A DNA stretch of 64,000 nt from an uncultured Gemmatimonadales bacterium (GTDB lineage Bacteria > Gemmatimonadota > Gemmatimonadetes > Gemmatimonadales > Gemmatimonadaceae): contig CAWKNZ010000010.1 of assembly GCA_963851265.1 (NCBI GenBank), positions 151,026 to 215,025 on the forward strand. Reading direction: 5' to 3'. Under the pieces are notes generated by a model. The model was not told the DNA's origin and did not search any database. It was given only the letters and a program-made list of their open reading frames with translations. A program made the position numbers and the translations under genes. Position 1 is the stretch's first letter. The number at the start of each line of letters is the position of its first letter. Of this stretch, positions 45,911 to 60,136 are shown piece after piece.

Positions 45911-46108
45911 CTACGCTGCGACCTCGACCTCGCGCACGTCCGCCCCGAGCAGGAGGTCATCGCGCGCGGCCAGGTACTCGGTCACGGCGTCGCGGATGTT
46001 GGCGAGCGCCTCGTCCTCGGTGGCGCCCTGCGACCAGCAGCCGGGCAGGCCGGGCACCCAGACGCTCACACCGTCCTCGTCGTGCTGCAGGGCTACACGG
46101 TACGTCAT
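45911..46108 (-). CDS. hicB: Cassette: short HicB antitoxin
   Basis: VWVPGLPGCWSQGATEDEALANIRDA. Confidence 0.9.
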   Translation of the reverse strand: MTYRVALQHDEDGVSVWVPGLPGCWSQGATEDEALANIRDAVTEYLAARDDLLLGADVREVEVAA

Positions 46109-46284
46109 GGCTCAGTCTCCGGATCGAGTCGGGGCGGCGCGGTCCCGCCGGGGGCAACATAGCGCCGCGCCGGCCGGGGCGGGTCGCAGATGCTGAATGC
46201 GCGGCTGCCCGGCGGCGGTGTAGCGATGCGACCCACGCGGAACGCGGCGGTACCGGACCGTCCCTATCACCGAGCATCGTTGCT

Positions 46285-46403
46285 GCCCAACGCCTCAAGT
46301 TCTGCTGCGAGTTGTCGGGGCGCGCTGCGGGTAGCGTACGCCAACGTCTGCCGGTGCGCCGGGGCGTCCCAGCATACTCGACAGCAGCAACGCCACGTTA
46401 GGT
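46285..46403 (-). repeat. attC
   Basis: GCCCAAC...GTTAGGT. Confidence 0.9.
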
Positions 46404-46422
46404 GGCGGCGTGACTCGCCCAG

Positions 46423-47070
46423 TCAGTGCGGCGCGAAGGTGAACGGGATCTGGATCATCTGGCGCACCGGACGCCCGTTGAGCTGCGCGGGCGCGAACCG
46501 GTACCCGGGGAGCACGGCCCGGACCGCCTGCTCGAAGCGCGGGTCCGACGACTCCAGCACGACCAGCGTCTCCGGCACCGGCACGCCCGCGCTGTCCACG
46601 GCGATCTGCACGACCACCTTGCCGCCGAGCGCGCGCGCCGCCGGCGGGTACGCCGGCGCCGCGCCGCGCACGAGCGCCGCCATCCGCTGCACCTCGAACT
46701 CGAAGTACATGTGCTGGGCCTCGGCCTCGGCGAGGGGCACGGCGAGTTCGCGCGGCTGCTCGGCGGACGTCGTCGCCGCGACCGAGTCGACGTGCGGCCG
46801 GGAGCCGTCCGGGAGCGAGACTTGGAGCTGGTAGAACCCGGCTGCCGGCACCGCGAGCACGAACCGGCCCGCGGAGTCGGCGCGCCCGTTGGCCACGAAG
46901 CGCCTCTCGCCCTGCGGCCGTACGCTGACGTATAGCGCGGGGGCGGGGTGACCGGAGCTCGCGTCGCGCAGCACGCCCGCCACAACTTGGGCGCCCGCGC
47001 GGCGCGTCGCGCCGGCCAGCAGGAGTCCACCCGCGGCGGCGTGCCACATCCGACTTCGACGAAAGATCAT
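46423..47070 (-). CDS. Cassette: TonB C-terminal domain protein with an N-terminal carboxypeptidase-regulatory-like domain
   Basis: YFEFEV, P.YP..AR..GG.VVVQ..VDS.G, RF.PAQLNGRPVRQ..Q.PF.F. Confidence 0.85.
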   Translation of the reverse strand: MIFRRSRMWHAAAGGLLLAGATRRAGAQVVAGVLRDASSGHPAPALYVSVRPQGERRFVANGRADSAGRFVLAVPAAGFYQLQVSLPDGSRPHVDSVAATTSAEQPRELAVPLAEAEAQHMYFEFEVQRMAALVRGAAPAYPPAARALGGKVVVQIAVDSAGVPVPETLVVLESSDPRFEQAVRAVLPGYRFAPAQLNGRPVRQMIQIPFTFAPH

Positions 47071-47098
47071 GACCTTCCCGTTCGGTAAAGTGTGGGCC

Positions 47099-47195
47099 AC
47101 CTAACGCTTCAAGTTCACCTGCAAAGCGGCCCATGCGGAGCCGTACGTACCGCGGATCGTCGGGCCGCTTTGTCAGGTGCAACGTCTCGTTCGGC
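47099..47195 (-). repeat. attC (short class)
   Basis: ACCTAAC...GTTCGGC. Confidence 0.9.
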
Positions 47196-47211
47196 GGCAC
47201 GCGCGCCCGCG

Positions 47212-47586
47212 CTACGCCCGGCGGGCGATGACGAGGAGCGCCGCGGCGGGGTCTGCCGCGAACGCGACCACGTCGGCGTGCCGCGCCCGGAGCGCGGTCT
47301 CCACGTCGGCCGTGGCGCAGTTGCCGAGTCTGGCCCAGACCACCTTGGGCGGTGGCCCGCGCAGGAAGCTGCGCTGTCGGAAGTCGTCGTCCTTGGTCAC
47401 GATCGCGTACCCGCCGGCGGCCGCGTGGGCCCAGATCGCCTCGTCGTCCGCCGCCGCCAGCCCGGCGTCCCGCACGTGGGCCGACCCGGGGTACAGGTCC
47501 GCCAACCGCCGGGCGAGCGCCGGCGCGAGGTTCTGGTCGAAGAGGAGCGGCGGGCCCGGCGGCGGCGCGCCGCCGCCGGCCGTCAC
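47212..47586 (-). CDS. Cassette: DUF5615 PIN-like toxin
   Basis: LLFDQNL, SAHVRDAGL..ADD, IVTKDDDF, PPKVVWARLGN. Confidence 0.88.
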   Translation of the reverse strand: MTAGGGAPPPGPPLLFDQNLAPALARRLADLYPGSAHVRDAGLAAADDEAIWAHAAAGGYAIVTKDDDFRQRSFLRGPPPKVVWARLGNCATADVETALRARHADVVAFAADPAAALLVIARRA

Positions 47587-47810
47587 GCCGCGACGTCGCC
47601 GGCGAGGCGGCGCTCGCGGTCGGCGGCGAAGGCCAGGGCGGCGCGGATGTCCTCACGCTCCAGGTCGGGGAAGTCGGCCAGGATCGCGTCCTCGTCCATC
47701 CCGCCGGCCAGGTAGTCGAGGACGTCGTAGACGGTGATCCGCAGCCCGCGCAGGCACGGCTTACCGCCGCGCTTGCCCGGCTCGATGGTGATCCGCCCGC
47801 GGTAGTCCAT
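47583..47810 (-). CDS. Cassette: DUF433 antitoxin
   Basis: ITIEPGKRGGKPCLRGLRITVYDVL. Confidence 0.92.
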   Translation of the reverse strand: MDYRGRITIEPGKRGGKPCLRGLRITVYDVLDYLAGGMDEDAILADFPDLEREDIRAALAFAADRERRLAGDVAA

Positions 47811-47885
47811 GGTCGGACGCTACTGCTCGGCCGCCCCGCGCGCTAGCCGGACCCCACGTTGCCTCGACGAACCCACCGGAGTGCC

Positions 47886-47982
47886 GCCGAACGCCAGAGT
47901 TCAGCTGCAAGGCCGCATACGCGATCTCTGCTGCCGGCGAGGGCCGCTGCGCGGCCTTGTCAGCTGCAATGATTCGTTCGGC
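47886..47982 (-). repeat. attC (short class)
   Basis: GCCGAAC...GTTCGGC. Confidence 0.88.
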
Positions 47983-48001
47983 GGCAGCGCGTTGGGGCTA
48001 C

Positions 48002-48235
48002 CTACGCGGGATCAAGCGCGAAGGACTCGAGAGCGCCGCAGCGCGAACATCGGTAGGTGGCCACGCGGTAGCGCTCCCGGTCCCCGCCGCTCCCCTCGCC
48101 GAGCAGCGCGCCGACGACGCCGCTGCGGTGATCGCCGGACACCCAGCGGATGTCCTCCGAACCGTTGCGCTGGACCAGCATCCCGACTGCGGAACTGCCC
48201 TGGCACCGGTAGCAAGAGTGCGGCTCAGCATGCAT
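48002..48235 (-). CDS. Cassette: small double-CxxC Zn-ribbon protein (DUF6487/PF20097-like)
   Basis: CYRC...W.SG...TYRCSRCGALESFA. Confidence 0.7.
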   Translation of the reverse strand: MHAEPHSCYRCQGSSAVGMLVQRNGSEDIRWVSGDHRSGVVGALLGEGSGGDRERYRVATYRCSRCGALESFALDPA

Positions 48236-48269
48236 GCGAAGAGTAGGGTTAGAGTGGAGCGATTTGGCC

Positions 48270-48366
48270 GCCGAACGCCGCAAGTTCAGCGGCATAGCGG
48301 CCCGCGCTGCGCCTGATCGGCTGATGATGGTCGGACCGCTATGTCCGCTGCAACGCCTCGTTCGGC
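48270..48366 (-). repeat. attC (short class)
   Basis: GCCGAAC...GTTCGGC. Confidence 0.88.
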
Positions 48367-48390
48367 GGCCGCGCGCCAGACGCGCGCATA

Positions 48391-49008
48391 TCAGCAGCCT
48401 TCGGCCACCCGGCGCGCCACGAACCGGAACCGTCCTATCACGCTGTCCGGGGCGACCGAGGTGAGGACGATCCAGCCCGCGCGGGCATCCAAGCTGGTGT
48501 GGCAGAGCGACAACGGCCAGCGCCCGTCGGAGACCGGCGACACGGCGAAGCCCGCGCGAACGGTGTCGGGATCGAACGGGATGCCGCCCCCGCCGATCGG
48601 ATACCAGCCCGGCGGCGGGAGCCACCGCGGCACCGCGCGGCCACTCGGGTCGACCGGGGACCGGTCGGCGAGGCTGAAGTATAGCCCGGCGCACGACACG
48701 TCGAGCGAGCGCACCTCCACGCTGCGCCCCTCGTGCACGAGGTTCTCGCCGGTGAGCCGCCCAACCCGGACCGCGTCACCACCCCACGGCAGCGCCCCCG
48801 CCGCGACGTCGCGGCCATCCACGCGGACACGGCAGGTGCGCCCGCGCAACTCGCCCTCGACCGTGATGCGGTCGAAGTGCCACCAGGGCGCGTCTACGCA
48901 ACCCGCGGCGCAGCAGACGAGGAAGACCCAGCGCGCGAGCCGGCGCGGCCGGGCGGGAGCGGCCCGCGACTCCGGCCAGGTCGGGGCGTGCAACCGGATC
49001 GAACGCAT
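48391..49008 (-). CDS. Cassette: hypothetical (lipo)protein
   Basis: Fills the cassette; AAGC lipobox-like; C-terminal DSVIGRFRFVARR. Confidence 0.6.
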   Translation of the reverse strand: MRSIRLHAPTWPESRAAPARPRRLARWVFLVCCAAGCVDAPWWHFDRITVEGELRGRTCRVRVDGRDVAAGALPWGGDAVRVGRLTGENLVHEGRSVEVRSLDVSCAGLYFSLADRSPVDPSGRAVPRWLPPPGWYPIGGGGIPFDPDTVRAGFAVSPVSDGRWPLSLCHTSLDARAGWIVLTSVAPDSVIGRFRFVARRVAEGC

Positions 49009-49057
49009 AGCGCGAAGACGCCCACGCGTCCTGCGCGGTCACCCCAGCCCGTTGTCC

Positions 49058-49174
49058 GCCGAACGCACAAGTTAAGCTGCGGGCTTTCCGAGCGCGACGA
49101 ACCGCCCCTGTGATGGAGACAGCGGAGGAGCGAAGCATCCGTGCATACCCGGCAGCTTCAACGCTTCGTTAGCT
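49058..49174 (-). repeat. attC
   Basis: GCCGAAC...GTTAGCT. Confidence 0.88.
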
Positions 49175-49208
49175 GGCGGCTCGCCGACCCTCGGCTGCGC
49201 CGCCCCGG

Positions 49209-49700
49209 CTACCAGAAGTGCCACCACGGCTGCCGCACCTGCACCATGGCGAAGCCGCTGCACGGGCCGTCCAGCGGCTGCTCGGCCATGCGAACCCGCA
49301 GCCGCACCTCGCGCTGGGACGTGACGGTCAGGGTGTCGCGGACCATGGCATAACCAAGCCGGCGCACCTCGAGCCGGTACGTCCCCGGCGGGATGTTGGA
49401 GGCGGCAAACGCACCGTCGACGTCGGCGTACGCCACCACCGGCGGCGTGCCCGCGGCCCGGCGCAGCACGACGGCCGCCTGCTCCACGGGGGCGCCGTCC
49501 TGGCGCTCCACGCGGCCCCGCACCCCGGCCGCGCCGGCCGGGGCGCCCGGCTCGACCCGCTCGGCCAGACTGCGGCGCGAGTCCACCCCTCGACACGCGC
49601 CGGGTACGTCGAGCTCGTTGACCCAGCGATACCGCGGAGCGCACCCGGAGAGGGCGCCGAGCGTCAGCGCGAGAACGAAGGCAAAGCGACGGATACACAT
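49209..49700 (-). CDS. Cassette: lipoprotein with a carboxypeptidase-regulatory-like domain
   Basis: LSGC; VRGRV...GAPVEQAAVV; DG.F...IPPGTYRLEVRRLGY. Confidence 0.8.
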   Translation of the reverse strand: MCIRRFAFVLALTLGALSGCAPRYRWVNELDVPGACRGVDSRRSLAERVEPGAPAGAAGVRGRVERQDGAPVEQAAVVLRRAAGTPPVVAYADVDGAFAASNIPPGTYRLEVRRLGYAMVRDTLTVTSQREVRLRVRMAEQPLDGPCSGFAMVQVRQPWWHFW

Positions 49701-49852
49701 GCCGAAAGGACGATGAAGCCCGGAGCCAGCTAGAAGTTATGACTGGGCTGGCCCCCCGCTCTCGCGTGGGTTAGCTCCTGCAGCGCGAGCCGCAGTCACC
49801 AGAGCCACAGGCGACGGTAGAACGTTGTCGCCTAACATGCGGAGGACCCCCC

Positions 49853-51037
49853 ATGTCATCCCGGACGATCGCTGCACCCGCGCCTGCCCCGTCCAGCGCC
49901 GCCCCTGCTCCCGGTACGATCTACTTGGGGCTCGACGTGCACAAGGACTCGGTCACCGTGGCCGTGCTCCCGGCCGGAGCGGCGGCCCCGACCCGCGTGG
50001 AGAAGCTCGCGAATGACCCTGCCAAGCTCCGGCGCTACTTCGACCGCCTCGCGACCGAGGGCACGCTCCGGGCCTGCTACGAAGCCAGCGGCGCCGGGTA
50101 CGTCCTCTATCGTGCGATGACCGAGTGGGGGTACGCGTGCGAGGTGATCGCGCCGTCGCTGATCCCGCAGCGGCCCGGGCACCAGCGCAAGCACGATCAG
50201 TACGACGCCGCCCAACTTGCCCGCTTGTACCGCGCCGGCGAGCTCACCACCGTGCGCATCCCGAGCGCGGCGGAAGAGCGCGTGCGCGACGTGGTGCGCT
50301 GCCGCGCCACGATGCAGCGCGAGCTGCTCAAGTCGCGGCAGTACCTGCTCAAGTTCCTCGCGCGCCGCGGCTTCGTGTACCGCGAGGGGACGGCCTGGAG
50401 CCGGCCGCATCTGCGCTGGCTCACGCAGCTCGCGCGCGACGACTCGCCCCTGGCCGCCGAGGACCGGCTCGTATTCCGCGAGTACCTCGCGCTCTTCGAG
50501 TACAAGCTCCAGCGCCGTGACGCGCTCGACACCGAGATCGAGCAGCTCGCCCTCACGCCGACCCTTCGGGACGCCGTTGGGCGCCTCCAATGCTTCCGCG
50601 GAATCTCGGTGCACGTCGCCATGGTCCTCGCGACGGAGCTCGTCGACTGGCGTCGCTTCGCGACCCCGCGGCAACTGGCGGCCTACCTGGGCCTCGTCCC
50701 GTCCGAGGACTCGAGCGGCGCGCGCGAACGCAAGGGCGCGATCACGAAGGCGGGCAACACGCACTGTCGCCACGCGCTCGTCCAGGCGGCCTGGAGCTAC
50801 CGCTACATCCCCAAGGTGGCGGCCCACCTCAAGAAGCGGCAGGAGGGACAACCGCCGGGCGTACTCGCCCACGCGTGGAAGGCCCAGCAGCGGCTGCACA
50901 AACGGTATACCCAGCTGACCTACCGGAAGCCGCCGCAGGTCGCCGTCGTCGCCGTCGCGCGCGAACTCGTCGGCTTTCTGTGGGCGGTCATGCGCGACGG
51001 AACGCCCGGCGCCACCGCGACGCCCGTCGCTGCCTAA
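49853..51037 (+). CDS. IS110 DEDD recombinase/transposase
   Basis: LGLDVHKD, CYEASG, KHDQYDA, GLVPSEDSSG, GAITKAGN. Confidence 0.97.
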   Translation: MSSRTIAAPAPAPSSAAPAPGTIYLGLDVHKDSVTVAVLPAGAAAPTRVEKLANDPAKLRRYFDRLATEGTLRACYEASGAGYVLYRAMTEWGYACEVIAPSLIPQRPGHQRKHDQYDAAQLARLYRAGELTTVRIPSAAEERVRDVVRCRATMQRELLKSRQYLLKFLARRGFVYREGTAWSRPHLRWLTQLARDDSPLAAEDRLVFREYLALFEYKLQRRDALDTEIEQLALTPTLRDAVGRLQCFRGISVHVAMVLATELVDWRRFATPRQLAAYLGLVPSEDSSGARERKGAITKAGNTHCRHALVQAAWSYRYIPKVAAHLKKRQEGQPPGVLAHAWKAQQRLHKRYTQLTYRKPPQVAVVAVARELVGFLWAVMRDGTPGATATPVAA

Positions 51038-51300
51038 CGGATACCCTGAACTCTGAGTGGCGTGTGGTCGGGGGTACGCACGAGAGCGATCCCCGACGGC
51101 GTTATGCAGACCGCCGGCGCGACACGGCCGGCGCGATCTCCGCGTCTAGAATGCGGGCGCTCGCGACGCATCCAATTCTTGCGGCTCCGGCTTCCGAGCT
51201 GACCCGCGTATAGCAGCAGGATTCACCGTCGCCTCTGCCCCGGCCCACGTCACTCTTGCCTTCTGATGCCCAACGACTCGACATGCCGGCATCACCCCGC
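51038..51300 (+). ncRNA. Putative bridge/seek RNA of the IS1111-type element
   Basis: 3' non-coding end with nested stems and target-like segments GGCGTTA (51098-51104) and GCGTCTA (51142-51148), plus donor-like ATAGCA (51210-51215); boundaries unknown. Confidence 0.7.
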
Positions 51301-51924
51301 TTGACACCAGCCCAGTCATAGCAATGCCCCAGCTCAGCTGCGGCGTTGTCCAAGAGCGACGCCGGTTGCGTACCAGAGTGGCGGCGGAGGAGCCGGGCGT
51401 CCCGGCGGACGCCGTCTGCTGCAGCGTAACGTTAGGCGTCAGCTCGATCCGGGCGCACCCCGTCCCGGCGAGTATGCCAGGCGACCCGCTCGGCCGCCAG
51501 GGGCACCGCCGCCGGGACCGCGCGTGGAACCGTCCGCGCCGCCGCGCGCCGGACCGGCCTTGTCGAACGGCACCGCCGGCGCGCGGCGGCGCCCACGCGA
51601 CGAGCCCGGCCCCGGGCGGCCCCGCTGCGAGCACCGCCTGGGGCGCCGTCCCGTCCTGGCGCCCCGGCCCGCCGGGGCACGGCCGTGCGCCGCCGCGCGC
51701 ATCGGCGCCCGCCCATCCGCGCCAGCGCCCACGGCGGGCGTCCCGCGCTGCGCGTCGTACCGCGTGCGGACCGCGGCGCCCGCCGCGGCGCGGTGAGGCG
51801 TCCCGGCCCTCGCCACCGCGGCGGACGGCGCTGCGCGCGACCTACGCCCTGCGACGGCGCGCCGCGCGGTGCACCGCCCCGCCCCGCCGACGAACAAGCA
51901 CTCACGTTCTCCCGGTGTACTGAC

Positions 51925-52021
51925 GCCTAACGCCTGAAGTTCACCTGCAAAGCGGCCCATCGGAAGCCGTACGTGCTGACGAGCGTCGGGCCGCTTTGTC
52001 AGGTGCAACGAATCGTTAGGC
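51925..52021 (-). repeat. attC (short class)
   Basis: GCCTAAC...GTTAGGC. Confidence 0.9.
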
Positions 52022-52279
52022 GGCGCCGGGGACGGAGCCGACCGGACGGACCGCGGGCAGGTCGTCGCCGGCCACCGGGCGGACGTCGGCCACCGCCAGC
52101 GTGCGCAGCGCCTGCGTGCGCCCGGCGTGCGTCACGAACTCCACCTCGACCGCCTCGGCGCCGTAGACCCACACGACCGTCCCCACGTCGCCCGCGCGTA
52201 GGCCGGCCTCGGGCACGTCGCGCGCGAGCACCACGCGCTCCAACTCGCGGTAGGGCGGCCGAGCCGCCGTCGTCGTCAT
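52016..52279 (-). CDS. Cassette: DUF4926-like protein (second, diverged)
   Basis: ELERVVLARDVPEAGLRAGDVGTVV.VY...EVEFV. Confidence 0.85.
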   Translation of the reverse strand: MTTTAARPPYRELERVVLARDVPEAGLRAGDVGTVVWVYGAEAVEVEFVTHAGRTQALRTLAVADVRPVAGDDLPAVRPVGSVPGAA

Positions 52280-52620
52280 GGTAGGCCCTCCCCCGGGTAC
52301 GCGGTCACGAGCCGCGGCACGTCGTCGCCGCGCAGGACGATCCAGACCGTCACGACCGCCGCGGTCCGGCCAGTCGGCCCCGTAACGATACCACGGACGA
52401 CGTACTTCTGCCCGAAAACGCCGGCCCCGGCCGCCTCGGCCTCGCCGCCGCGCGCGAGCGCGAGCAGGGCGTCTCGGAGGAGGGGCCACCCGGCGCGGGT
52501 GAAGCCGAGGGCGGCGAAGAACCGCCCCTTCGAACTCCCGTCCGGGTGGTCGGGGGAGAGCAGGTAGTCGCGCACCTTGGCCGGGTCGACCACGGCACGC
52601 TCGGCGTTCGGAAGCCTCAT
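52276..52620 (-). CDS. Cassette: DUF6883-like protein (second, diverged)
   Basis: MRLPNAERAVVDPAKVRDYLLSPDHPDG..K.RFF..LGF, PRLVTAYP. Confidence 0.82.
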   Translation of the reverse strand: MRLPNAERAVVDPAKVRDYLLSPDHPDGSSKGRFFAALGFTRAGWPLLRDALLALARGGEAEAAGAGVFGQKYVVRGIVTGPTGRTAAVVTVWIVLRGDDVPRLVTAYPGEGLP

Positions 52621-52648
52621 GCCGCGCAAAGATAATCAGCGGTGCGCC

Positions 52649-52767
52649 GCCTAACGCCCCAGCTCAGCTGCGGCGCCGTCCGAGCGAGGTATAGGTCGCG
52701 TGTGACAGAACCCGCGGAGGAGCGGAGCGTCCCCGCGCACGCCGACTGCTGCAGCACGACGTTAGGC
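52649..52767 (-). repeat. attC
   Basis: GCCTAAC...GTTAGGC. Confidence 0.9.
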
Positions 52768-53130
52768 GGTGATCACGACGAGCTGTCCCGGTCTCACCTC
52801 CGCCGCGGCCTCCCTGGCCCGCGGCACCAGCGGTTCCAGGGCCGCTCGCGTGTTCGCTCGAGCCCGGAGCAGCACCGTCCCGAACGGTCGACCTTCGAGC
52901 CGTTGTTGCCGCGGTAACCGCTTGTCCACGGTCACGAACACGTCGCATAGGCCGGTGATACGGTCCAGCAACGGGCCGTCGTCCACGTCGGCTAACCCGA
53001 GCGCGCCCACCCGCTCGACATCGAACGCCGGCGGCTCGCCGGCCAGCAGGCGCATCAGCGGGCGCGGCACACAGTGGTCGATTAGGATACGCCGGCGCTC
53101 CGAGGGCGGCGGCGCCCCAGTCTCGTCCAC
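52762..53130 (-). CDS. Cassette: DUF5615-like PIN toxin
   Basis: ILIDHCVPR.L, DDGPLL, DVFVTVDK.L..QQ. Confidence 0.8.
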   Translation of the reverse strand: MDETGAPPPSERRRILIDHCVPRPLMRLLAGEPPAFDVERVGALGLADVDDGPLLDRITGLCDVFVTVDKRLPRQQRLEGRPFGTVLLRARANTRAALEPLVPRAREAAAEVRPGQLVVITA

Positions 53131-53136
53131 CCGCGG

Positions 53137-53361
53137 CTACGCGGCCGGGGCGTACGCGTCCAGCGCGGCGCGGGCGAGCTCCAGGACCGCGACCGCGTGC
53201 TCGCGGCTGACGTCCGGGAAGTCGTCGAGGAACGCGTCCAGCGGCTCGCCGTCCTCGACATAGTCGATTAGGGTCTGGACGGGGACCCGGGTGCCGGCGA
53301 AGACGGCCGCGCCGCTGAGGCGCTCGGGCGAGCGGGTGATGAGGGGCGACGGGAGCGGCAT
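53137..53361 (-). CDS. Cassette: DUF433 antitoxin
   Basis: ITRSPERLSGAAVFAGTRVPVQTLIDY..G..LD.FLDDFP.V. Confidence 0.9.
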   Translation of the reverse strand: MPLPSPLITRSPERLSGAAVFAGTRVPVQTLIDYVEDGEPLDAFLDDFPDVSREHAVAVLELARAALDAYAPAA

Positions 53362-53482
53362 CGGACCTCCAGGCCGGGAGCACGGGTGGGGACGAGATGA
53401 ATCTACGCCCCATGACCGCCACGCGCTGCGCCAGCCCCGGCGGGGAGCCCCGGCCATAGCCATACGCCGTCGCGCGTTCACC

Positions 53483-53579
53483 GCCTAACGCCTCAAGTTC
53501 ACCTGCAAAGCGGCCCACACGGGACCGGACCTGTTGATGATGTCTGGGCCGCTTTGTCAGGTGCAACGCCTCGTTCGGC
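53483..53579 (-). repeat. attC (short class)
   Basis: GCCTAAC...GTTCGGC. Confidence 0.9.
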
Positions 53580-53619
53580 GGCACGCGCGACCGCGCCGGT
53601 GGGCGAGCGCCGGCCGGCG

Positions 53620-53844
53620 CTACGCCGACGGCGCGTACGACTCGAGGTAGCCACAGGCCGGGCAGCGGAACGTGGTGACCGCGTGGCGCTCACGCCCGCC
53701 CAGTTTCAGCCCGGTCCAGAAGGACGGCTCCGGCACCCCCTCAGCCCACTCCGGCGCCGAGACGGAGCCACTCGGCATCCCCTTGTCGATGATGAACCCC
53801 GACTCCATCGCGGCGGCGCACTTCGGGCACGTTGGTGGTTGCAT
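53620..53844 (-). CDS. Cassette: small double-CxxC Zn-ribbon protein (DUF6487/PF20097-like)
   Basis: CPKC...ME.GFIID...W.EG.P..SFWTG...FRCPACGYLESYA. Confidence 0.8.
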   Translation of the reverse strand: MQPPTCPKCAAAMESGFIIDKGMPSGSVSAPEWAEGVPEPSFWTGLKLGGRERHAVTTFRCPACGYLESYAPSA

Positions 53845-53911
53845 GGAATTCGAGCGGAACGCAGCGGGTGATTGAGGTCTGACGGGATGCGACGCGAGAA
53901 GTTCCGGTGCT

Positions 53912-54029
53912 GCCGAACGCCGAGTTCAGTTGCGGGTTGTCCAAGCGCGCAAACGCTCGCGTACGCGAGCGGCCGCGGGCGGGCCAGGAGCGTCCCCGCA
54001 TCCCCGCCAACTGCAACGTCTCGTTGGAT
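53912..54029 (-). repeat. attC
   Basis: GCCGAAC...GTTGGAT. Confidence 0.88.
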
Positions 54030-54050
54030 GGCCGCGCACTGATGCTGGCG

Positions 54051-54413
54051 TCATCCTACCTCCACCAGCGGCTCACCCGCGGCTAAGAGCGCGGCGACCT
54101 GGGGCCACGCCGGGAGCACAATCCGACGCAGCTCGAGGTTGCGCACGGTCCCGCACGTCACCCACACGACCTGTGGTGGCGGACCGTGCTGCTCAAGCAG
54201 TCGCACGAAGTCGTCGTCCTTGGTGACCACCACCGCTGCGCCGCCTTCGCGAGCGGCGGCGAAGATCACGGCGTCGTCCGCGCTCAGGTACCCGACATCG
54301 TTCACGTGCGCGGCGCTCACGCCGTACTCATCGACCAGCCACCGCGCGAGCGCCGGCGGAAGCTGCGCGTCAACCCAGACGCGCGGGGTGGCGTTGGTGC
54401 CGCCGAATGTCAC
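54051..54413 (-). CDS. Cassette: DUF5615 PIN-like toxin
   Basis: VWVDAQLPPALARWL, VVTKDDDF, GPPPQVVWVTCG. Confidence 0.88.
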   Translation of the reverse strand: MTFGGTNATPRVWVDAQLPPALARWLVDEYGVSAAHVNDVGYLSADDAVIFAAAREGGAAVVVTKDDDFVRLLEQHGPPPQVVWVTCGTVRNLELRRIVLPAWPQVAALLAAGEPLVEVG

Positions 54414-54644
54414 CTATGCTGCGAGCCGTGGATGGTCGAGGCGCCGCGCCGCGTAGAGGAGACAGGCAGCGATGTCGTCGTGCTCGAGGTAGGGGAAGTC
54501 GTCTAAGATCTCCGCCTCGGGTGCGCCGGCCGCCAGCAGGCCGAGCACATCGGACACGCGGATGCGCATGCCGCGGACGCATGGGCGGCCGCCGCACTGC
54601 TCCGGGCGGAGCGTGATACGCGAGAGGAGTTCAGTGTCGGACAC
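54414..54644 (-). CDS. Cassette: DUF433 antitoxin
   Basis: LLSRITLRPEQCGGRPCVRGMRIRVSDVL; GTG start inferred. Confidence 0.9.
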   Translation of the reverse strand: MSDTELLSRITLRPEQCGGRPCVRGMRIRVSDVLGLLAAGAPEAEILDDFPYLEHDDIAACLLYAARRLDHPRLAA

Positions 54645-54719
54645 GGGATCTCCGGGGCGGTGGACGTCGCTGGAAGATAGTGCCGGCCACAACCCGACCC
54701 TCCTACGGCGCATGTGGCC

Positions 54720-54836
54720 ATCCAACGCCCCAGTTCTGCTGCAAGCTGTCCGAGTGCGACGGCGGTGGCCTCCGACGGCGCACGCGGAGGAGCGGAGCGT
54801 ACCTGCATACTTGACAGCAGCAACGCAACGTTAGCC
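54720..54836 (-). repeat. attC
   Basis: ATCCAAC...GTTAGCC. Confidence 0.88.
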
Positions 54837-54890
54837 GTCAGTGCGCGTCGGCGCGCGTCGCGGGTACCCTTCGGCGTGCGTGGATGTACG

Positions 54891-55226
54891 TCAGGCGGAA
54901 TCAGACGGCCTCCGTATACGCGCGAGGAGCGCCCCGAGGGCACCTATCACGAGCGCGAAGCCGAGTTCGCCCGTCGGGGTCCAGTGCGTGTCGCGCCACC
55001 CGCCCGTGAATCGGTCGCGGTAGATCACGTGCGATCCACCGATCGCGACCGTGACACCGATCCAGAGCCAGCCTCCGAGCGTTCCCGCGCAGAACCATAT
55101 ACGAGCGCGGGCCCGTAGGCTCCTGCTGCTGATGGCGCGGGCACGCCGGATCAAGGCAGCCGCGAGCAGGAGGCCGAGGGAGAAACCGAGAAGGTTGCCG
55201 ACGTCCTGCCGAAACGACGAATCCAC
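54891..55226 (-). CDS. Cassette: small 3-TM membrane protein
   Basis: Three hydrophobic segments; fills the cassette. Confidence 0.6.
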   Translation of the reverse strand: MDSSFRQDVGNLLGFSLGLLLAAALIRRARAISSRSLRARARIWFCAGTLGGWLWIGVTVAIGGSHVIYRDRFTGGWRDTHWTPTGELGFALVIGALGALLARIRRPSDSA

Positions 55227-55385
55227 GCGGGCGTGTACGTTTAGCGGGGCTGGGCCTGACGGCTAGAAGTTATGACTGGGCTGGCCCCCCGCTCTCGCGT
55301 GGGTTAGCTCCTGCAGCGCGAGCCGCAGTCACCAGAGCCACAGGCGACGGTAGAACGTTGTCGCCTAACATGCGGAGGACCCCCC

Positions 55386-56570
55386 ATGTCATCCCGGACG
55401 ATCGCTGCACCCGCGCCTGCCCCGTCCAGCGCCGCCCCTGCTCCCGGTACGATCTACTTGGGGCTCGACGTGCACAAGGACTCGGTCACCGTGGCCGTGC
55501 TCCCGGCCGGAGCGGCGGCCCCGACCCGCGTGGAGAAGCTCGCGAATGACCCTGCCAAGCTCCGGCGCTACTTCGACCGCCTCGCGACCGAGGGCACGCT
55601 CCGGGCCTGCTACGAAGCCAGCGGCGCCGGGTACGTCCTCTATCGTGCGATGACCGAGTGGGGGTACGCGTGCGAGGTGATCGCGCCGTCGCTGATCCCG
55701 CAGCGGCCCGGGCACCAGCGCAAGCACGATCAGTACGACGCCGCCCAACTTGCCCGCTTGTACCGCGCCGGCGAGCTCACCACCGTGCGCATCCCGAGCG
55801 CGGCGGAAGAGCGCGTGCGCGACGTGGTGCGCTGCCGCGCCACGATGCAGCGCGAGCTGCTCAAGTCGCGGCAGTACCTGCTCAAGTTCCTCGCGCGCCG
55901 CGGCTTCGTGTACCGCGAGGGGACGGCCTGGAGCCGGCCGCATCTGCGCTGGCTCACGCAGCTCGCGCGCGACGACTCGCCCCTGGCCGCCGAGGACCGG
56001 CTCGTATTCCGCGAGTACCTCGCGCTCTTCGAGTACAAGCTCCAGCGCCGTGACGCGCTCGACACCGAGATCGAGCAGCTCGCCCTCACGCCGACCCTTC
56101 GGGACGCCGTTGGGCGCCTCCAATGCTTCCGCGGAATCTCGGTGCACGTCGCCATGGTCCTCGCGACGGAGCTCGTCGACTGGCGTCGCTTCGCGACCCC
56201 GCGGCAACTGGCGGCCTACCTGGGCCTCGTCCCGTCCGAGGACTCGAGCGGCGCGCGCGAACGCAAGGGCGCGATCACGAAGGCGGGCAACACGCACTGT
56301 CGCCACGCGCTCGTCCAGGCGGCCTGGAGCTACCGCTACATCCCCAAGGTGGCGGCCCACCTCAAGAAGCGGCAGGAGGGACAACCGCCGGGCGTACTCG
56401 CCCACGCGTGGAAGGCCCAGCAGCGGCTGCACAAACGGTATACCCAGCTGACCTACCGGAAGCCGCCGCAGGTCGCCGTCGTCGCCGTCGCGCGCGAACT
56501 CGTCGGCTTTCTGTGGGCGGTCATGCGCGACGGAACGCCCGGCGCCACCGCGACGCCCGTCGCTGCCTAA
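55386..56570 (+). CDS. IS110 DEDD recombinase/transposase
   Basis: Identical protein to 49853-51037. Confidence 0.97.
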   Translation: MSSRTIAAPAPAPSSAAPAPGTIYLGLDVHKDSVTVAVLPAGAAAPTRVEKLANDPAKLRRYFDRLATEGTLRACYEASGAGYVLYRAMTEWGYACEVIAPSLIPQRPGHQRKHDQYDAAQLARLYRAGELTTVRIPSAAEERVRDVVRCRATMQRELLKSRQYLLKFLARRGFVYREGTAWSRPHLRWLTQLARDDSPLAAEDRLVFREYLALFEYKLQRRDALDTEIEQLALTPTLRDAVGRLQCFRGISVHVAMVLATELVDWRRFATPRQLAAYLGLVPSEDSSGARERKGAITKAGNTHCRHALVQAAWSYRYIPKVAAHLKKRQEGQPPGVLAHAWKAQQRLHKRYTQLTYRKPPQVAVVAVARELVGFLWAVMRDGTPGATATPVAA

Positions 56571-56833
56571 CGGATACCCTGAACTCTGAGTGGCGTGTGG
56601 TCGGGGGTACGCACGAGAGCGATCCCCGACGGCGTTATGCAGACCGCCGGCGCGACACGGCCGGCGCGATCTCCGCGTCTAGAATGCGGGCGCTCGCGAC
56701 GCATCCAATTCTTGCGGCTCCGGCTTCCGAGCTGACCCGCGTATAGCAGCAGGATTCACCGTCGCCTCTGCCCCGGCCCACGTCACTCTTGCCTTCTGAT
56801 GCCCAACGACTCGACATGCCGGCATCACCCCGC
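56571..56833 (+). ncRNA. Putative bridge/seek RNA, copy 2
   Basis: Same 3' non-coding end as copy 1. Confidence 0.7.
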
Positions 56834-57025
56834 TTGACACCAGCCCAGTCATAGCAACGCCAGAGTTAAGCTGACGGGCCGTGCGGGTACGCGAGCGCCG
56901 AGGCGCGACACAGCCGAGGGGCGCGCCGGGGCGTCCCGGCGGACCCGGGCAGCTTCAACGCCTCGTTCGGCGGCGCCGCGCCGGCCCGTCCCGGCGGGCG
57001 CGGGCTCGCGGGCGCTCCCCGGCGC

Positions 57026-57247
57026 TCACGCGCGCAGGAACGCCTCCGGCTCGACGCCGATGTCGCGGCAGATCTGCCGCAGCAGCGGCGGCGCGAGGTC
57101 CCGGCCCCCGTGGAACGGCACCGTCGTCTGCCGCCCGTCGGCGTGCCGGAACTGCTTGTGCGACCCGCGCTGCCGGACCTCGACGAAACCGAGGCGCTCC
57201 AGGCGCGCCACGACCTCTCGGGGCTTCAGGACCGGCAGCGAGCCCAC
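57026..57247 (-). CDS. hicA: Cassette: HicA toxin
   Basis: [29 protein letters not shown]. Confidence 0.92.
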
Positions 57248-57259
57248 GCGCGGCCCCGG

Positions 57260-57469
57260 TCAGGCCACCCGAAGCGTCTGCGTCCCCACGAACTCGGCCT
57301 CGAGCGGCGGCTCGCCGTCCTCAAGCAGCATGGCCACGACCTCCTCGAGGTTGCCCCGCAGCTCGTCTAGCGTGGCGCCCTGGCTGTGGGCGCCCGGGAA
57401 GCCGGGGACGTGGCCCACGTAGAGGCCCGTGGCGGGGTCGCGCTCGACGACGGCGGTGTAGGTGCGCAT
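57260..57469 (-). CDS. hicB: Cassette: short HicB antitoxin
   Basis: YVGHVPGFPGAHSQGATLDELRGNLEEV. Confidence 0.92.
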   Translation of the reverse strand: MRTYTAVVERDPATGLYVGHVPGFPGAHSQGATLDELRGNLEEVVAMLLEDGEPPLEAEFVGTQTLRVA

Positions 57470-57587
57470 GGGAGGCGGGGGCGAGGGCTCCGGGGCCGGG
57501 ACGCGCGCAATCTACACCCGGGTCGGCCAGCAACGGCGCGCCGCGGCCCGGTCCCCAGGGCGGCCCCGCCGCAGGCAGCCGTCCGCC

Positions 57588-57684
57588 GCCGAACGCCAGA
57601 GTTCAGCTGCGGAGCGGCCCGCACGGAGTTGTAGATGCAAGGTGCTGCTTGGGCCGCTCCGTCTGCTGCAACGATTCGTTAGAC
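57588..57684 (-). repeat. attC (short class)
   Basis: GCCGAAC...GTTAGAC. Confidence 0.88.
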
Positions 57685-58353
57685 GGCCGGGGGCCTCAGC
57701 CGCCCCGGTCGGACCTGCGCAGCGACCGCGTCGTCAAGTTGGGTACTACTAACAATGAGGAGGTTGTCGACGCTAAAGGTGTTCTTCTCGACGGATGCAA
57801 GAAACGCTAGGTACTCTCGGATACGTAACAGATCGCCCAACCGCACGTCGCTCCAGCACACGACAAGGCCGATCCGGCCGAGAGCGACAGCGTTGAGCGC
57901 GCTCCCAATCAGGTACTTGGCGGCGATGTTACCCTTCTCGACTTCGATCGCGAGAAAACAGCGGGCGTTCTGGTTTGCTGCAGTCAATCGCTCGTAGGCT
58001 GCGCTGGGGTAGTCGCTACCCCAGCGCTGGACATTGTGGAGGTTGGCCAACATCAGGGCCCGCAAGAACGCGCTGTGCGCCTCGGCCATGCGGTCATACT
58101 CGTCTACATGTCGCTGATGGATGGCGAACGGCCCTACGGCTATGTCCACACGCGGTTCGTAAACGGCTCGTCGGCGAGAGGTGGGCTCCGGCCGCCGCCA
58201 GAAGGAATCGGAACCCGATGCAAGCCACTCTAGCTCGACTGCCGCGCCGACCCCGAGCACGGTGCCGAGTCTCGTGGCCAGCGAGCGCTGATACTCCGCG
58301 ACCTCAGGCCGTGGCTCGCCGAAAGGGCGGAGCTTCGCTCGGGAACGGTCCAT
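57679..58353 (-). CDS. Cassette: putative PD-(D/E)xK restriction-endonuclease-fold protein
   Basis: EYQ...ELEW...YEPRVDIAVGPF...FLAIEVEK; lower GC; stop in attC. Confidence 0.65.
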   Translation of the reverse strand: MDRSRAKLRPFGEPRPEVAEYQRSLATRLGTVLGVGAAVELEWLASGSDSFWRRPEPTSRRRAVYEPRVDIAVGPFAIHQRHVDEYDRMAEAHSAFLRALMLANLHNVQRWGSDYPSAAYERLTAANQNARCFLAIEVEKGNIAAKYLIGSALNAVALGRIGLVVCWSDVRLGDLLRIREYLAFLASVEKNTFSVDNLLIVSSTQLDDAVAAQVRPGRLRPPAV

Positions 58354-58382
58354 TTTTTATGGCTGCAGGGATGCTGGTAGCC

Positions 58383-58499
58383 GTCTAACGCCGAGTTCAC
58401 TTGCGGGTCGTCCAGGCGAGTAACCCGTCGCGTGTGACAAGCGCGGCGGGAGCTACGAAGGTGCCCGGCGAACCCGTCAAATGCAACGTTCCGTTAGGT
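58383..58499 (-). repeat. attC
   Basis: GTCTAAC...GTTAGGT. Confidence 0.88.
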
Positions 58500-58839
58500 G
58501 GCCGAAGCGCCGAACGACGGCCGCACACGCGGGCAGCCCCCGCTCGCGCGCCCACAGCCGAGCGTGGGTGAGTTCGGCTTCCCGGGCGCGAAGCACCGCG
58601 GGATCCCAGAACGCCCGCACGGCTCCGACCGGGAGACCGTCGGTCTCGGAGATGATCCCGGTGAACGCATCGAGCACTGCGTCACCCTGCCGTAGTCCAG
58701 CCTCTCGGAGGTGATGCTCAAGTTGCGGCGCCGCCTCCAAGAGCTCGTACGCACCGGAGAGCACGCGCGACGCGAGGCGAGCGGCGCGGCATCCAGCGTC
58801 GGCGGCGGCGGACGTAGAAGCTCCCTCTGAGTCGGGCAT
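58477..58839 (-). CDS. Cassette: DUF2489-like protein
   Basis: F.GI.SETDGLPVG..R.FW...L...E.E. Confidence 0.65.
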   Translation of the reverse strand: MPDSEGASTSAAADAGCRAARLASRVLSGAYELLEAAPQLEHHLREAGLRQGDAVLDAFTGIISETDGLPVGAVRAFWDPAVLRAREAELTHARLWARERGLPACAAVVRRFGHLTERCI

Positions 58840-58859
58840 CGCAGGATGAGCGGGTGGCC

Positions 58860-58977
58860 GCCTAACGCCCAAGTTCAGTTGCGGGTCGTGAGCGTGCGAC
58901 AGCGCCGAGGCGAGACAACGCCGATGGCCGCGCTGCCCTAACCCCGCGTACCCGACAACTGCAACGACACGTTCGGC
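58860..58977 (-). repeat. attC
   Basis: GCCTAAC...GTTCGGC. Confidence 0.88.
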
Positions 58978-58995
58978 GGCGCGGTGCGCGTGGCT

Positions 58996-59295
58996 TCACC
59001 CGCGCGCGTCACGTGCCCGCTCGGCAAGTACGGCCGTGGTGAACCGTTGTCCCTCAGCGACTTGGTCGACGACGTGCCCGACGGCGGCCACCTGCTCCTC
59101 GAGGGCCGCGACGCGTGCCGCGAGCGCGGTCGCCTCGGCGGCGCCGCGCGCCCGACGCTCGTGGGCGCGGACGAACCGCAGCGCCAAGTAGAGGAGCGCC
59201 GCGGGCAGGGCTAGGTAGACCAGGGCTGCGACGGCGAACGACAGCAGCATGGGGCCGATCTCGGCCTGCAGGATCGGTTGCGCGTCGGCCTGCAT
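58996..59295 (-). CDS. Cassette: small TM plus coiled-coil protein
   Basis: TM helix then RVAALEEQV...VAEGQRFTTAVLAER. Confidence 0.7.
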   Translation of the reverse strand: MQADAQPILQAEIGPMLLSFAVAALVYLALPAALLYLALRFVRAHERRARGAAEATALAARVAALEEQVAAVGHVVDQVAEGQRFTTAVLAERARDARG

Positions 59296-59348
59296 CGTAG
59301 CTGGAAAGTTGGGTAAGTCGGTCTGTCGTGCGCGGATCGCGGTAAGCC

Positions 59349-59470
59349 GCCGAACGCCCAAGTTCTGCTGCGAGCTTGTCGGAGCGCGATGGCGGGTAGC
59401 GTACGACAACGTCTGCCGGAGGCGCCGGGGCGTCCCAGGCAGACTCGACAGCAGCAACGCCACGTTAGGT
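59349..59470 (-). repeat. attC
   Basis: GCCGAAC...GTTAGGT. Confidence 0.88.
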
Positions 59471-59489
59471 GGCGGCGTGACTCGCCCAG

Positions 59490-60136
59490 TCAGTGCGGCG
59501 CGAAGGTGAACGGGATCTGGATCATCTGGCGCACCGGACGCCCGTTGAGCTGCGCGGGCGCGAACCGGTACCCGGGGAGCACGGCCCGGACCGCCTGCTC
59601 GAAGCGCGGGTCCGACGACTCCAGCACGACCAGCGTCTCCGGCACCGGCACGCCCGCGCTGTCCACGGCGATCTGCACGACCACCTTGCCGCCGAGCGCG
59701 CGCGCCGCCGGCGGGTACGCCGGCGCCGCGCCGCGCACGAGCGCCGCCATCCGCTGCACCTCGAACTCGAAGTACATGTGCTGGGCCTCGGCCTCGGCGA
59801 GGGGCACGGCGAGTTCGCGCGGCTGCTCGGCGGACGTCGTCGCCGCGACCGAGTCGACGTGCGGCCGGGAGCCGTCCGGGAGCGAGACTTGGAGCTGGTA
59901 GAACCCGGCTGACGGCACCGCGAGCACGAACCGGCCCGCGGAGTCGGCGCGCCCGTTGGCCACGAAGCGCCTCTCGCTCTGCGGCGGTACGCTGACGTAT
60001 AGCGCGGGGGCGGGGTGACCGGAGCTCGCGTCGCGCAGCACGCGTGCCACAACTTGGGCGCCCGCGCGGCGCGTGCGCTGGCCAGCAGGAGTCCACCCGC
60101 GGCGGCGTGCCACATCCGACTTCGACGAAAGATCAT
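59490..60136 (-). pseudogene. Cassette: second copy of the TonB-C protein, with a 1-bp deletion near 60075
   Basis: Near-identical to 46423-47070; ggcgcgTCGCGCCggcc became ggcgcgTGCGCTggcc, shifting the frame after the signal peptide start. Confidence 0.8.

Follow-up and report, generated by a model that had tools for sequence, protein, structure and literature searches.

How does an insertion sequence (IS) come to lie in two different recombination sites of one integron, at the same base of each? The question is raised by a 64,000-nucleotide (nt) stretch of DNA from an uncultured Gemmatimonadales bacterium (assembly GCA_963851265.1, contig CAWKNZ010000010.1, positions 151,026 to 215,025; hereafter, the window), in which two identical elements interrupt attC sites of a cassette array. 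We conclude, with a probability of roughly 85%, that the element is an active IS of the IS1111 group in which a DEDD/serine recombinase gene is followed, in the right end, by a structured guide RNA of ~200 nt that targets the R' core of attC.

Two identical IS1111 elements split attC sites

When the window was compared with itself, positions 49729-51324 and 55262-56857 proved to be identical (1596 bp). After removal of the bases derived from the target (GCT, the first three, and AA, the last two), an element of 1591 bp remained (Table 1). It begins with AGAAGTT and ATGACTGGGCTGG and ends with CCAGCCCAGTCAT and AGC, which gives 7 nt, a perfect 13-bp inverted repeat at either side, and 3 nt. The product of its transposase/recombinase gene (tnp), P0001, matched PF01548 (DEDD_Tnp_IS110; 1.7e-13) and PF02371 (Transposase_20; 2.6e-18), and the non-coding DNA amounts to 285 nt 3' of the tnp stop codon versus 121 nt 5' of the start codon. 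These domains, the sub-terminal repeats with their extensions, and the long downstream non-coding region place the element in the IS1111 group of the IS110 family.

A search of the whole host assembly (4.60 Mb, 12 contigs) recovered two full copies of the element, both in the window, and the sole further match was a segment of 72 nt with 76% identity in another element. The left flanks of the copies are gccAGCT (copy 1) and gacGGCT (copy 2) and the right flanks are AATgcc and AACgcc, respectively, and both copies split an attC at ..GCT|AA.. (the bar marks the insertion point). An earlier annotation made from the letters of the window (the original prediction) had described two identical 1591-bp elements with IS1111 end geometry that split two attCs at the same base. 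It was right to the coordinate: the flanks diverge at the element boundaries and, rejoined, rebuild attC sites, and a mapping of all genomic copies, a check it had named, yielded the two window copies only, each in an attC. It had also described the reconstructed boxes as complementary to the other ends of their cassettes. This is exact for copy 2, whose box GGCT|AAC is the reverse complement of GTTAGCC at 54830, but the copy 1 box, AGCT|AAT, matches GTTAGCT at 49168 in only 6 of 7 positions.

A predicted structured RNA in the 3' end

To compare the element with its relatives, we scanned one genome per species, which returned 70 stretches encoding a relative of P0001, and metagenome contigs, which returned 279 such stretches, of which the best 80 were kept. 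The best ~35 relatives of the first scan were from Gemmatimonadota assemblies and had 50 to 73% identity. In total, 147 loci were considered along with the two window copies, and RNA anchor motifs were found in 65 of these (i.e., 63 relatives). After exclusion of six of the 65 that were truncated at contig ends and of seven duplicates, 52 distinct RNA sequences remained; for the tests of covariation with flanks, each of 51 independent insertion sites was counted once. It is important to note that CTAGAATG served as a search anchor for the relatives and that its own conservation is not usable as evidence.

RNAalifold identified 38 pairs in the 52 sequences, with compensatory changes on both sides in 24. 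Standard pairing was found in 94.9% of cells, versus 31 to 42% when the 3' partners were slid by 1 to 3 columns, and the covariation score was 0.389, compared with 0.144 in shuffles (0 of 500 shuffles were as high). Two modules lie within an outer long-range stem (51055-51063 paired with 51247-51255). The first runs from a closing helix through GGCGUUA and a hairpin to GCGUCUAGAAUG; its closing helix is formed by GAGCG (51084-51088) with CGCTC (51158-51162) and a second covarying segment, and compensating variants were seen among the relatives. The strands of the donor loop, in the second module, are AAUUCU (51174-51179) and UAUAGCAGCA (51209-51218), and the inner hairpin of that module has 6 covarying pairs. 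Together, these patterns support a predicted 3'-end RNA of ~200 nt in which one loop would serve the target and the other the joined ends of the element itself. The original prediction had placed an RNA with two loops in this 285-nt end; covariation in the relatives bears this out, its stems are present, and its motif positions were exact (GGCGTTA, 51098-51104; GCGTCTA, 51142-51148; AATTCTTG, 51174-51181; ATAGCA, 51210-51215).

Guides covary with flanks and with the element's own tip

If the first loop reads the target, its sequence should follow the DNA beside each insertion. The match of guide 1 (GGCGUUA in our element) to the right flank averaged 6.47 of 9 positions over the 51 sites, versus 5.32 ± 0.13 after permutation, and 0 of 10,000 permutations reached the observed value. 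Right-flank positions 1 to 7 matched in 34 to 49 of the 51 sites, whereas positions 8 and 9 did not. Natural retargeting was seen in several guide classes: GAGCGUUA occurs with the flank AACGCTC (3 of 3), CGGCAUUA with AATGCCG, AUCCGUUA with AACGGAT, UGGCUGUU with AACAGCC, CACAACGC with GCGTTGTG, and CYUCGUUA with AACGARG (8 of 11). Covariation of loop and flank among homologues had been named beforehand as a check on the idea, and guide 1 passed it, following the seven bases to the right of the insertion point. Taken by itself, the window gives a weak guide match (the 7-mer GGCGTTA has 20 copies versus 5.1 expected), and the single-sequence fold of the 285-nt end is no better than that of shuffles (z, -0.85); it is the relatives that provide the significance.

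For guide 2, the left-flank base at -1 (C) matched in 45 of 49 sites, -2 in 23, and -3 in 24, and positions further upstream did not match. The 7-nt second target guide GCGTCTA of the original prediction therefore stands for its last 3 to 5 nt, which track the flank, and not for the remainder. The GAA that lies 3' of guide 2 is a copy of the opening bases of the left tip of the element itself and, on the model of IS621, may act as a handshake guide.

In the donor loop, ATAGCA occurs with the right tip AGC and ATATCA with the tip ATC (57 of 58 elements), as expected if ATAGCA reads the element's own right tip, a role already assigned to it in the original prediction. The left tip was AGAAnnT in 52 of the 53 elements having a left end. 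AATTCTTG hardly varied among the relatives, and in the 7 copies that do differ, the changes are not matched by those of the variable left tip.

The closest relatives (L072 and L088, from metagenome contigs; 92% and 97% protein identity) lie in two more attC sites, with the junctions AGC|AACGCCCCAGTTAAG and AGC|AACGCCCAAGTTAAG. With both window sites, this means that near-identical elements have hit at least four different attCs. In three of 58 elements (L028, L121, and L137), the right flank begins with AG rather than AA. AG also follows the right tip in the joined circle, and such flanks may be a sign that the crossover region spans two bases and is not identical between donor and target.

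Table 1. Features of the two elements and of the interrupted attC sites (positions in the window)
Feature	Position	Strand	Basis or remark
IS copy 1, IS1111 type, 1591 bp	49732..51322	+	Identity to copy 2
IS copy 2	55265..56855	+	All copy 1 features recur at +5533
Left tip AGAAGTT (7 nt) and left sub-terminal inverted repeat ATGACTGGGCTGG	49732..49751	+	
Transposase/recombinase gene, 394 aa (P0001)	49853..51037	+	Pfam domains
Structured non-coding RNA, bridge/seek RNA candidate	51055..51255	+	RNAalifold and pair counts, 52 sequences
Target guide 1, GGCGUUA	51098..51104	+	Complementary to T|AACGCC, tnp-sense strand
Hairpin between target guides	51108..51139	+	Compensatory changes in 5/5 pairs (helices 3, 4)
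Target guide 2 region, GCGUCUA plus GAA	51142..51151	+	Only ..CUA follows left flank
Donor-binding loop module	51165..51230	+	Stems GACG/CGUC and AUCC/GGAU; inner hairpin
TTGACA, candidate -35 box of junction-formed promoter	51301..51306	+	16 nt from right end
Right sub-terminal inverted repeat CCAGCCCAGTCAT and right tip AGC	51307..51322	+	
attC body split by copy 1	51323..51438	-	Other R' box piece, 49725-49731
attC body split by copy 2	56856..56971	-	Other R' box piece, 55258-55264

A proposed mechanism for homing to attC

The anatomy of the element, the fold of its RNA, the covariation of the guides with flanks and tip, and the polarity of the attC sites (see below) are all shown by the present analysis, and they suggest how the element may find its site. 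In the first loop, GGCGUUA would pair with the target strand in the sense of tnp (T|AACGCC), and the ..CUA on the 3' side of that loop would bind the left half-site (..CT|A) through its opposite strand. The two target guides would overlap on T|A, the position at which the element is observed, and would specify 10 to 11 bp, (C)CT|AACGCC, which correspond, on the bottom strand, to the attC R' core plus three spacer bases. In the second loop, AUAGCAG and UUCU would correspond to the junction at which the ends meet in the excised circle (..CATAGC|AGAA..). Insertion at the target would break the R box and put the element, in antisense orientation, at the start of the next cassette, 2 nt away from where the integrase crosses over. 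By analogy with IS621, ISEc11, and ISKpn4, we infer that the RNA is produced and bound by the recombinase, that the element passes through a circular intermediate, that strand exchange follows the chemistry of these systems, and that the attC is damaged.

The hexamer TTGACA was kept in 12 of 13 aligned elements, and the left sub-terminal inverted repeat was exact in 12 of the 13 related loci displayed. TTGACA may serve as the -35 box of a promoter that arises only at the circle junction; a scan of the integrated copy detected no sigma-70-like promoter and no terminator. Contigs from four DNA runs over 49400-51700 break at the element ends, without joints, and neither a circle junction nor an empty site was seen in them. 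Among the sequencing runs listed for the stretch, none was of RNA. In two runs of a second study (X2 and X4), contigs over the same interval contained pieces of the element with 0 to 3 differences, and one contig stops exactly at the left boundary (49730); the element is present in other soil samples.

Position within attC and the cassette array

Which end of attC has been hit depends on the polarity of the array. A detector based on minimum free energy proved too strict, missing the attC of copy 2, and gave way to a profile of the attC left half; the rejoined copy 1 site (W1) folds as an attC. In 25 attC sites of the window, the fold leaves extra bases in the 3' half of the plus strand, before AAC-spacer-GTTAGGC. 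The aadA1 attC of plasmid R100 has an extra G at the equivalent place of its bottom strand, within a near-identical AAC-GAAT(T)-GTTAG, and the plus strand of the window is thus the attC bottom strand. Long open reading frames (ORFs) fill the cassettes of 49000-57300 on the minus strand, judging by eye. The end of the window is the end of its contig (C10), and another contig of the assembly (C6) opens with attCs of the same polarity, followed by intI on the minus strand. Since intI lies on the contig that continues the array, the integrase flanks the array on the right and the cassettes extend leftward; C10 and C6 may abut.

On the top strand, the insertion point reads GTT|AGCC, inside R'. The integrase crossover in attC is at G|TT, and the element lies 2 nt beyond it. 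Because tnp is on the plus strand and the cassette top strand is the minus strand, the element is antisense to cassette transcription. The attC polarity, the cassette ORFs, and the position of intI place the element in the R' core, within the first bases of the next cassette, in keeping with the original prediction of an insertion in the crossover core at the head of the next cassette. The spacer bases GCC, which guide 1 reads, set R' apart from R''. After insertion, the box beside the attC body is ..TAGCAAC, in which AAC alone is left to pair with R'', and the interrupted attC is probably crippled as an integrase substrate. The element itself is not an integron gene cassette: its ends bear inverted repeats, its position is shifted from the crossover by 2 nt, and it carries no attC of its own.

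On C6, the attC array (379-2895) is found 3' of intI, and array and gene share one direction, which we take to be the "inverted integrase" arrangement. The intI gene (C6:3005-6339, locus L155) matches its family model in two pieces (2-265 and 260-313), ~2 kb apart and with a 529-amino-acid ORF between them; the gene is split by an insertion.

Unoccupied targets and alternative explanations

Outside the integron, both in the window (13158-36396) and across the whole genome, the word GCCTAACG/CGTTAGGC abounds, with 1396 copies in the 4.6-Mb genome. The target of the element overlaps this word. The longer CTAACGCC has 213 exact genomic copies, 19 in the integron and 194 outside. The original prediction that the guide offers many potential targets thus holds for the number of exact matches, but none of the 194 outside words is occupied, and pairing with the guide cannot by itself account for the element's restriction to attC.

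The empty words weigh against the guided mechanism as proposed, and so do several other findings. The left-flank guide is weak (mean match, 2.80 of 8 versus 2.60 ± 0.10; 316 of 10,000 permutations reach the observed value). The helix that closes the first loop is absent from RNAalifold's own prediction, the stems that close the donor loop are invariant and hence uninformative, and an Rfam search of 46000-60000 (E ≤ 1) gave no matching family, the sole match being a chance mascRNA elsewhere. As the original prediction had stated, neither used site matches the guide perfectly: the AAT that replaces AAC can be read only through a G-T pair, and each site has a mismatch at position -2. Finally, target and donor share just one base (A) at the crossover, so that the register of strand exchange is not fixed.

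One way to account for the empty words is that the guide is necessary but not sufficient and that an attC structure (a cruciform or a single-stranded hairpin) or an integron protein is needed beyond the bare CCTAACGCC. We consider this unlikely, though far from negligible. Both copies lie in attC even though only 19 of the 213 exact words are in the integron, 22 of 33 independent right flanks of relatives with ..GCGUUA guides score at least 4 bits on the attC left-half profile, and the outside words all score 2.4 bits or less, none being attC-like. However, relatives of the same guide class also occupy sites that do not fold as attC (L033, L086, and L120), the CYUCGUUA class adjoins DDE transposase genes, and IS1111 assays have succeeded on plasmid targets (PMC11187229). 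Loss of harmful insertions in genes would, moreover, produce the same picture; such loss and a preference for attC structure could each explain the restriction. A broader proposal, that attC homing was invented a second time and independently, strikes us as quite doubtful. Here, a Gemmatimonadota lineage of IS1111 elements would have set its guide on the crossover core, the element would travel at the very start of a cassette, the integrase could then move it or the array could be frozen through the integrase, and its confinement to attC despite ~190 equal GCCTAACG matches would mean that the recombinase reads DNA structure too.

Spread of the known IS1111-attC group (the ISPst6/ISPa21/ISKpn4 lineage) into another phylum would explain the common family, the attC target, and the antisense orientation, but we regard it as very unlikely. 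The known group inserts near the attC 5' end (PMC3001079), whereas our element is in R', at the 3' end; the guide motifs of ISKpn4, in our own reading, match the other side of attC (see below); and the best annotated relatives of the transposase are in the ISSfr2 (44.8%) and ISSso6 (39.3%) families. The transposase probably represents a separate lineage from those of ISKpn4, ISPst6, and ISPa21. Recognition of the site by the protein alone, with the non-coding matches arising by chance or from mis-set element boundaries, is hardly credible: GGCGTTA is indeed common in the window (20 copies) and the single-sequence fold is not significant, but guide and flank change together in independent elements, which already contradicts it, the flanks of the two copies diverge exactly at the boundaries and rebuild attC sites, and intact attCs of the same array keep an uninterrupted box. 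Guidance by the 3'-end RNA to the R' core remains our preferred reading.

Targets of other guide classes were also apparent among the relatives. Relatives with CYUCGUUA guides (L007, L009, L011, L014, L016, L131, and L138) lie at CT|AACGARGCTGTAGRA, and in L011 and L016 a DDE transposase gene (DUF772/DDE_Tnp_1_6) adjoins the target, in either orientation; in this class, the elements have probably entered the end of a different insertion sequence. One relative that has a CCUCGUUA guide (L136, 3977-4120) occupies an attC-like hairpin at its R'' end, where it reads the top strand, which indicates that the family reaches both ends of attC with different guides.

Comparison with known systems

Tetu and Holmes in 2008 and Post and Hall in 2009 are said to have described the IS1111-attC group. 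The concept of RNA guidance to attC is not new, since it was demonstrated in 2024 for ISKpn4 and ISPst6 (PMC11187229), and the known principle of RNA-guided targeting is unchanged by the present element. In the literature searched for a Gemmatimonadota IS1111-attC element or a bridge RNA directed at attC, the papers cited here were the only ones to turn up, and none gives an earlier account of such an element in Gemmatimonadota. The element extends RNA-guided homing of IS1111 elements to attC beyond the clinical Pseudomonas/Klebsiella group, to soil Gemmatimonadota and the opposite end of attC. Further, the 51 natural guide-target pairs can serve as a ready collection from which to derive how IS1111 bridge RNAs choose targets: one side is read over ~8 nt and the other over 3 to 5 nt, three bases copy the donor tip, and the bases next to the crossover are not identical. 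Insertions that break the R box should fuse neighboring cassettes, and such elements may therefore shape large chromosomal integrons.

The nearest known counterparts are ISKpn4, ISPst6, and ISPa21, which share the IS1111 architecture, an RNA downstream of tnp, an attC target, and an orientation antisense to cassettes. Siddiquee et al. 2024 (PMC11187229) showed that the non-coding regions downstream of the gene in ISKpn4 and ISPst6, two elements aimed at one end of attC, give rise to a seekRNA that co-purifies with the transposase and matches both target strands; the order of its guides, with the top-strand match 5' of the bottom-strand match, is that seen here. Consistent with a right-end location, Durrant et al. 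2024 (PMC11208160) predicted, for 93% of IS1111 elements, a bridge RNA encoded in the right end. In the ISKpn4 non-coding region (supplement of PMC11187229), ..TAACAAT.. and ..TTTGAACG.. flank a hairpin, and in our own reading these motifs would match TAACAAT and CGTTCAA of the aadA1 attC, i.e., its R''-spacer-L'' side. A plasmid element from Klebsiella (H37, 39%) was considered as a stand-in for ISKpn4 and rejected, as it lies outside any integron. Our element differs from the ISKpn4, ISPst6, and ISPa21 group in host, theirs being Pseudomonadota, and in its target, the R' core at the attC 3' end, whereas known IS1111-attC elements lie near the attC 5' end, antisense to cassettes (PMC3001079). 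In addition, RNA function was demonstrated at the bench for ISKpn4 and ISPst6, while the RNA described here is predicted from covariation.

The bridge RNA of IS621 (Durrant et al. 2024, PMC11208160; Hiraizumi et al. 2024, PMC11208158) likewise has two internal loops, with a longer 5' and a shorter 3' guide that overlap at the crossover, and the bases beside its short target guide, the handshake guides, copy the donor (PMC11208158), as GAA may do here. As in IS621, one loop reads the element's own joined ends. Unlike IS621, our element has its RNA in the right end, after the gene, with the strand order reversed, and has long sub-terminal repeats, and its target and donor share one crossover base rather than a dinucleotide (the cores are an identical CT in IS621).

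IS4321 and IS5075 are IS1111 family members that insert in the terminal repeats of Tn21-family transposons. Like them, our element inserts site specifically into the recombination sequence of another mobile element, as its CYUCGUUA relatives probably also do, but IS4321 and IS5075 have 24% identity to P0001 and a different target. Group IIC-attC introns are RNA-guided mobile elements that also home to attC and lie antisense to cassettes (PMC3001079). These introns, however, are retrotransposing ribozymes that insert at the other end of attC, whereas the Gemmatimonadota element pairs a recombinase with a predicted guide RNA.

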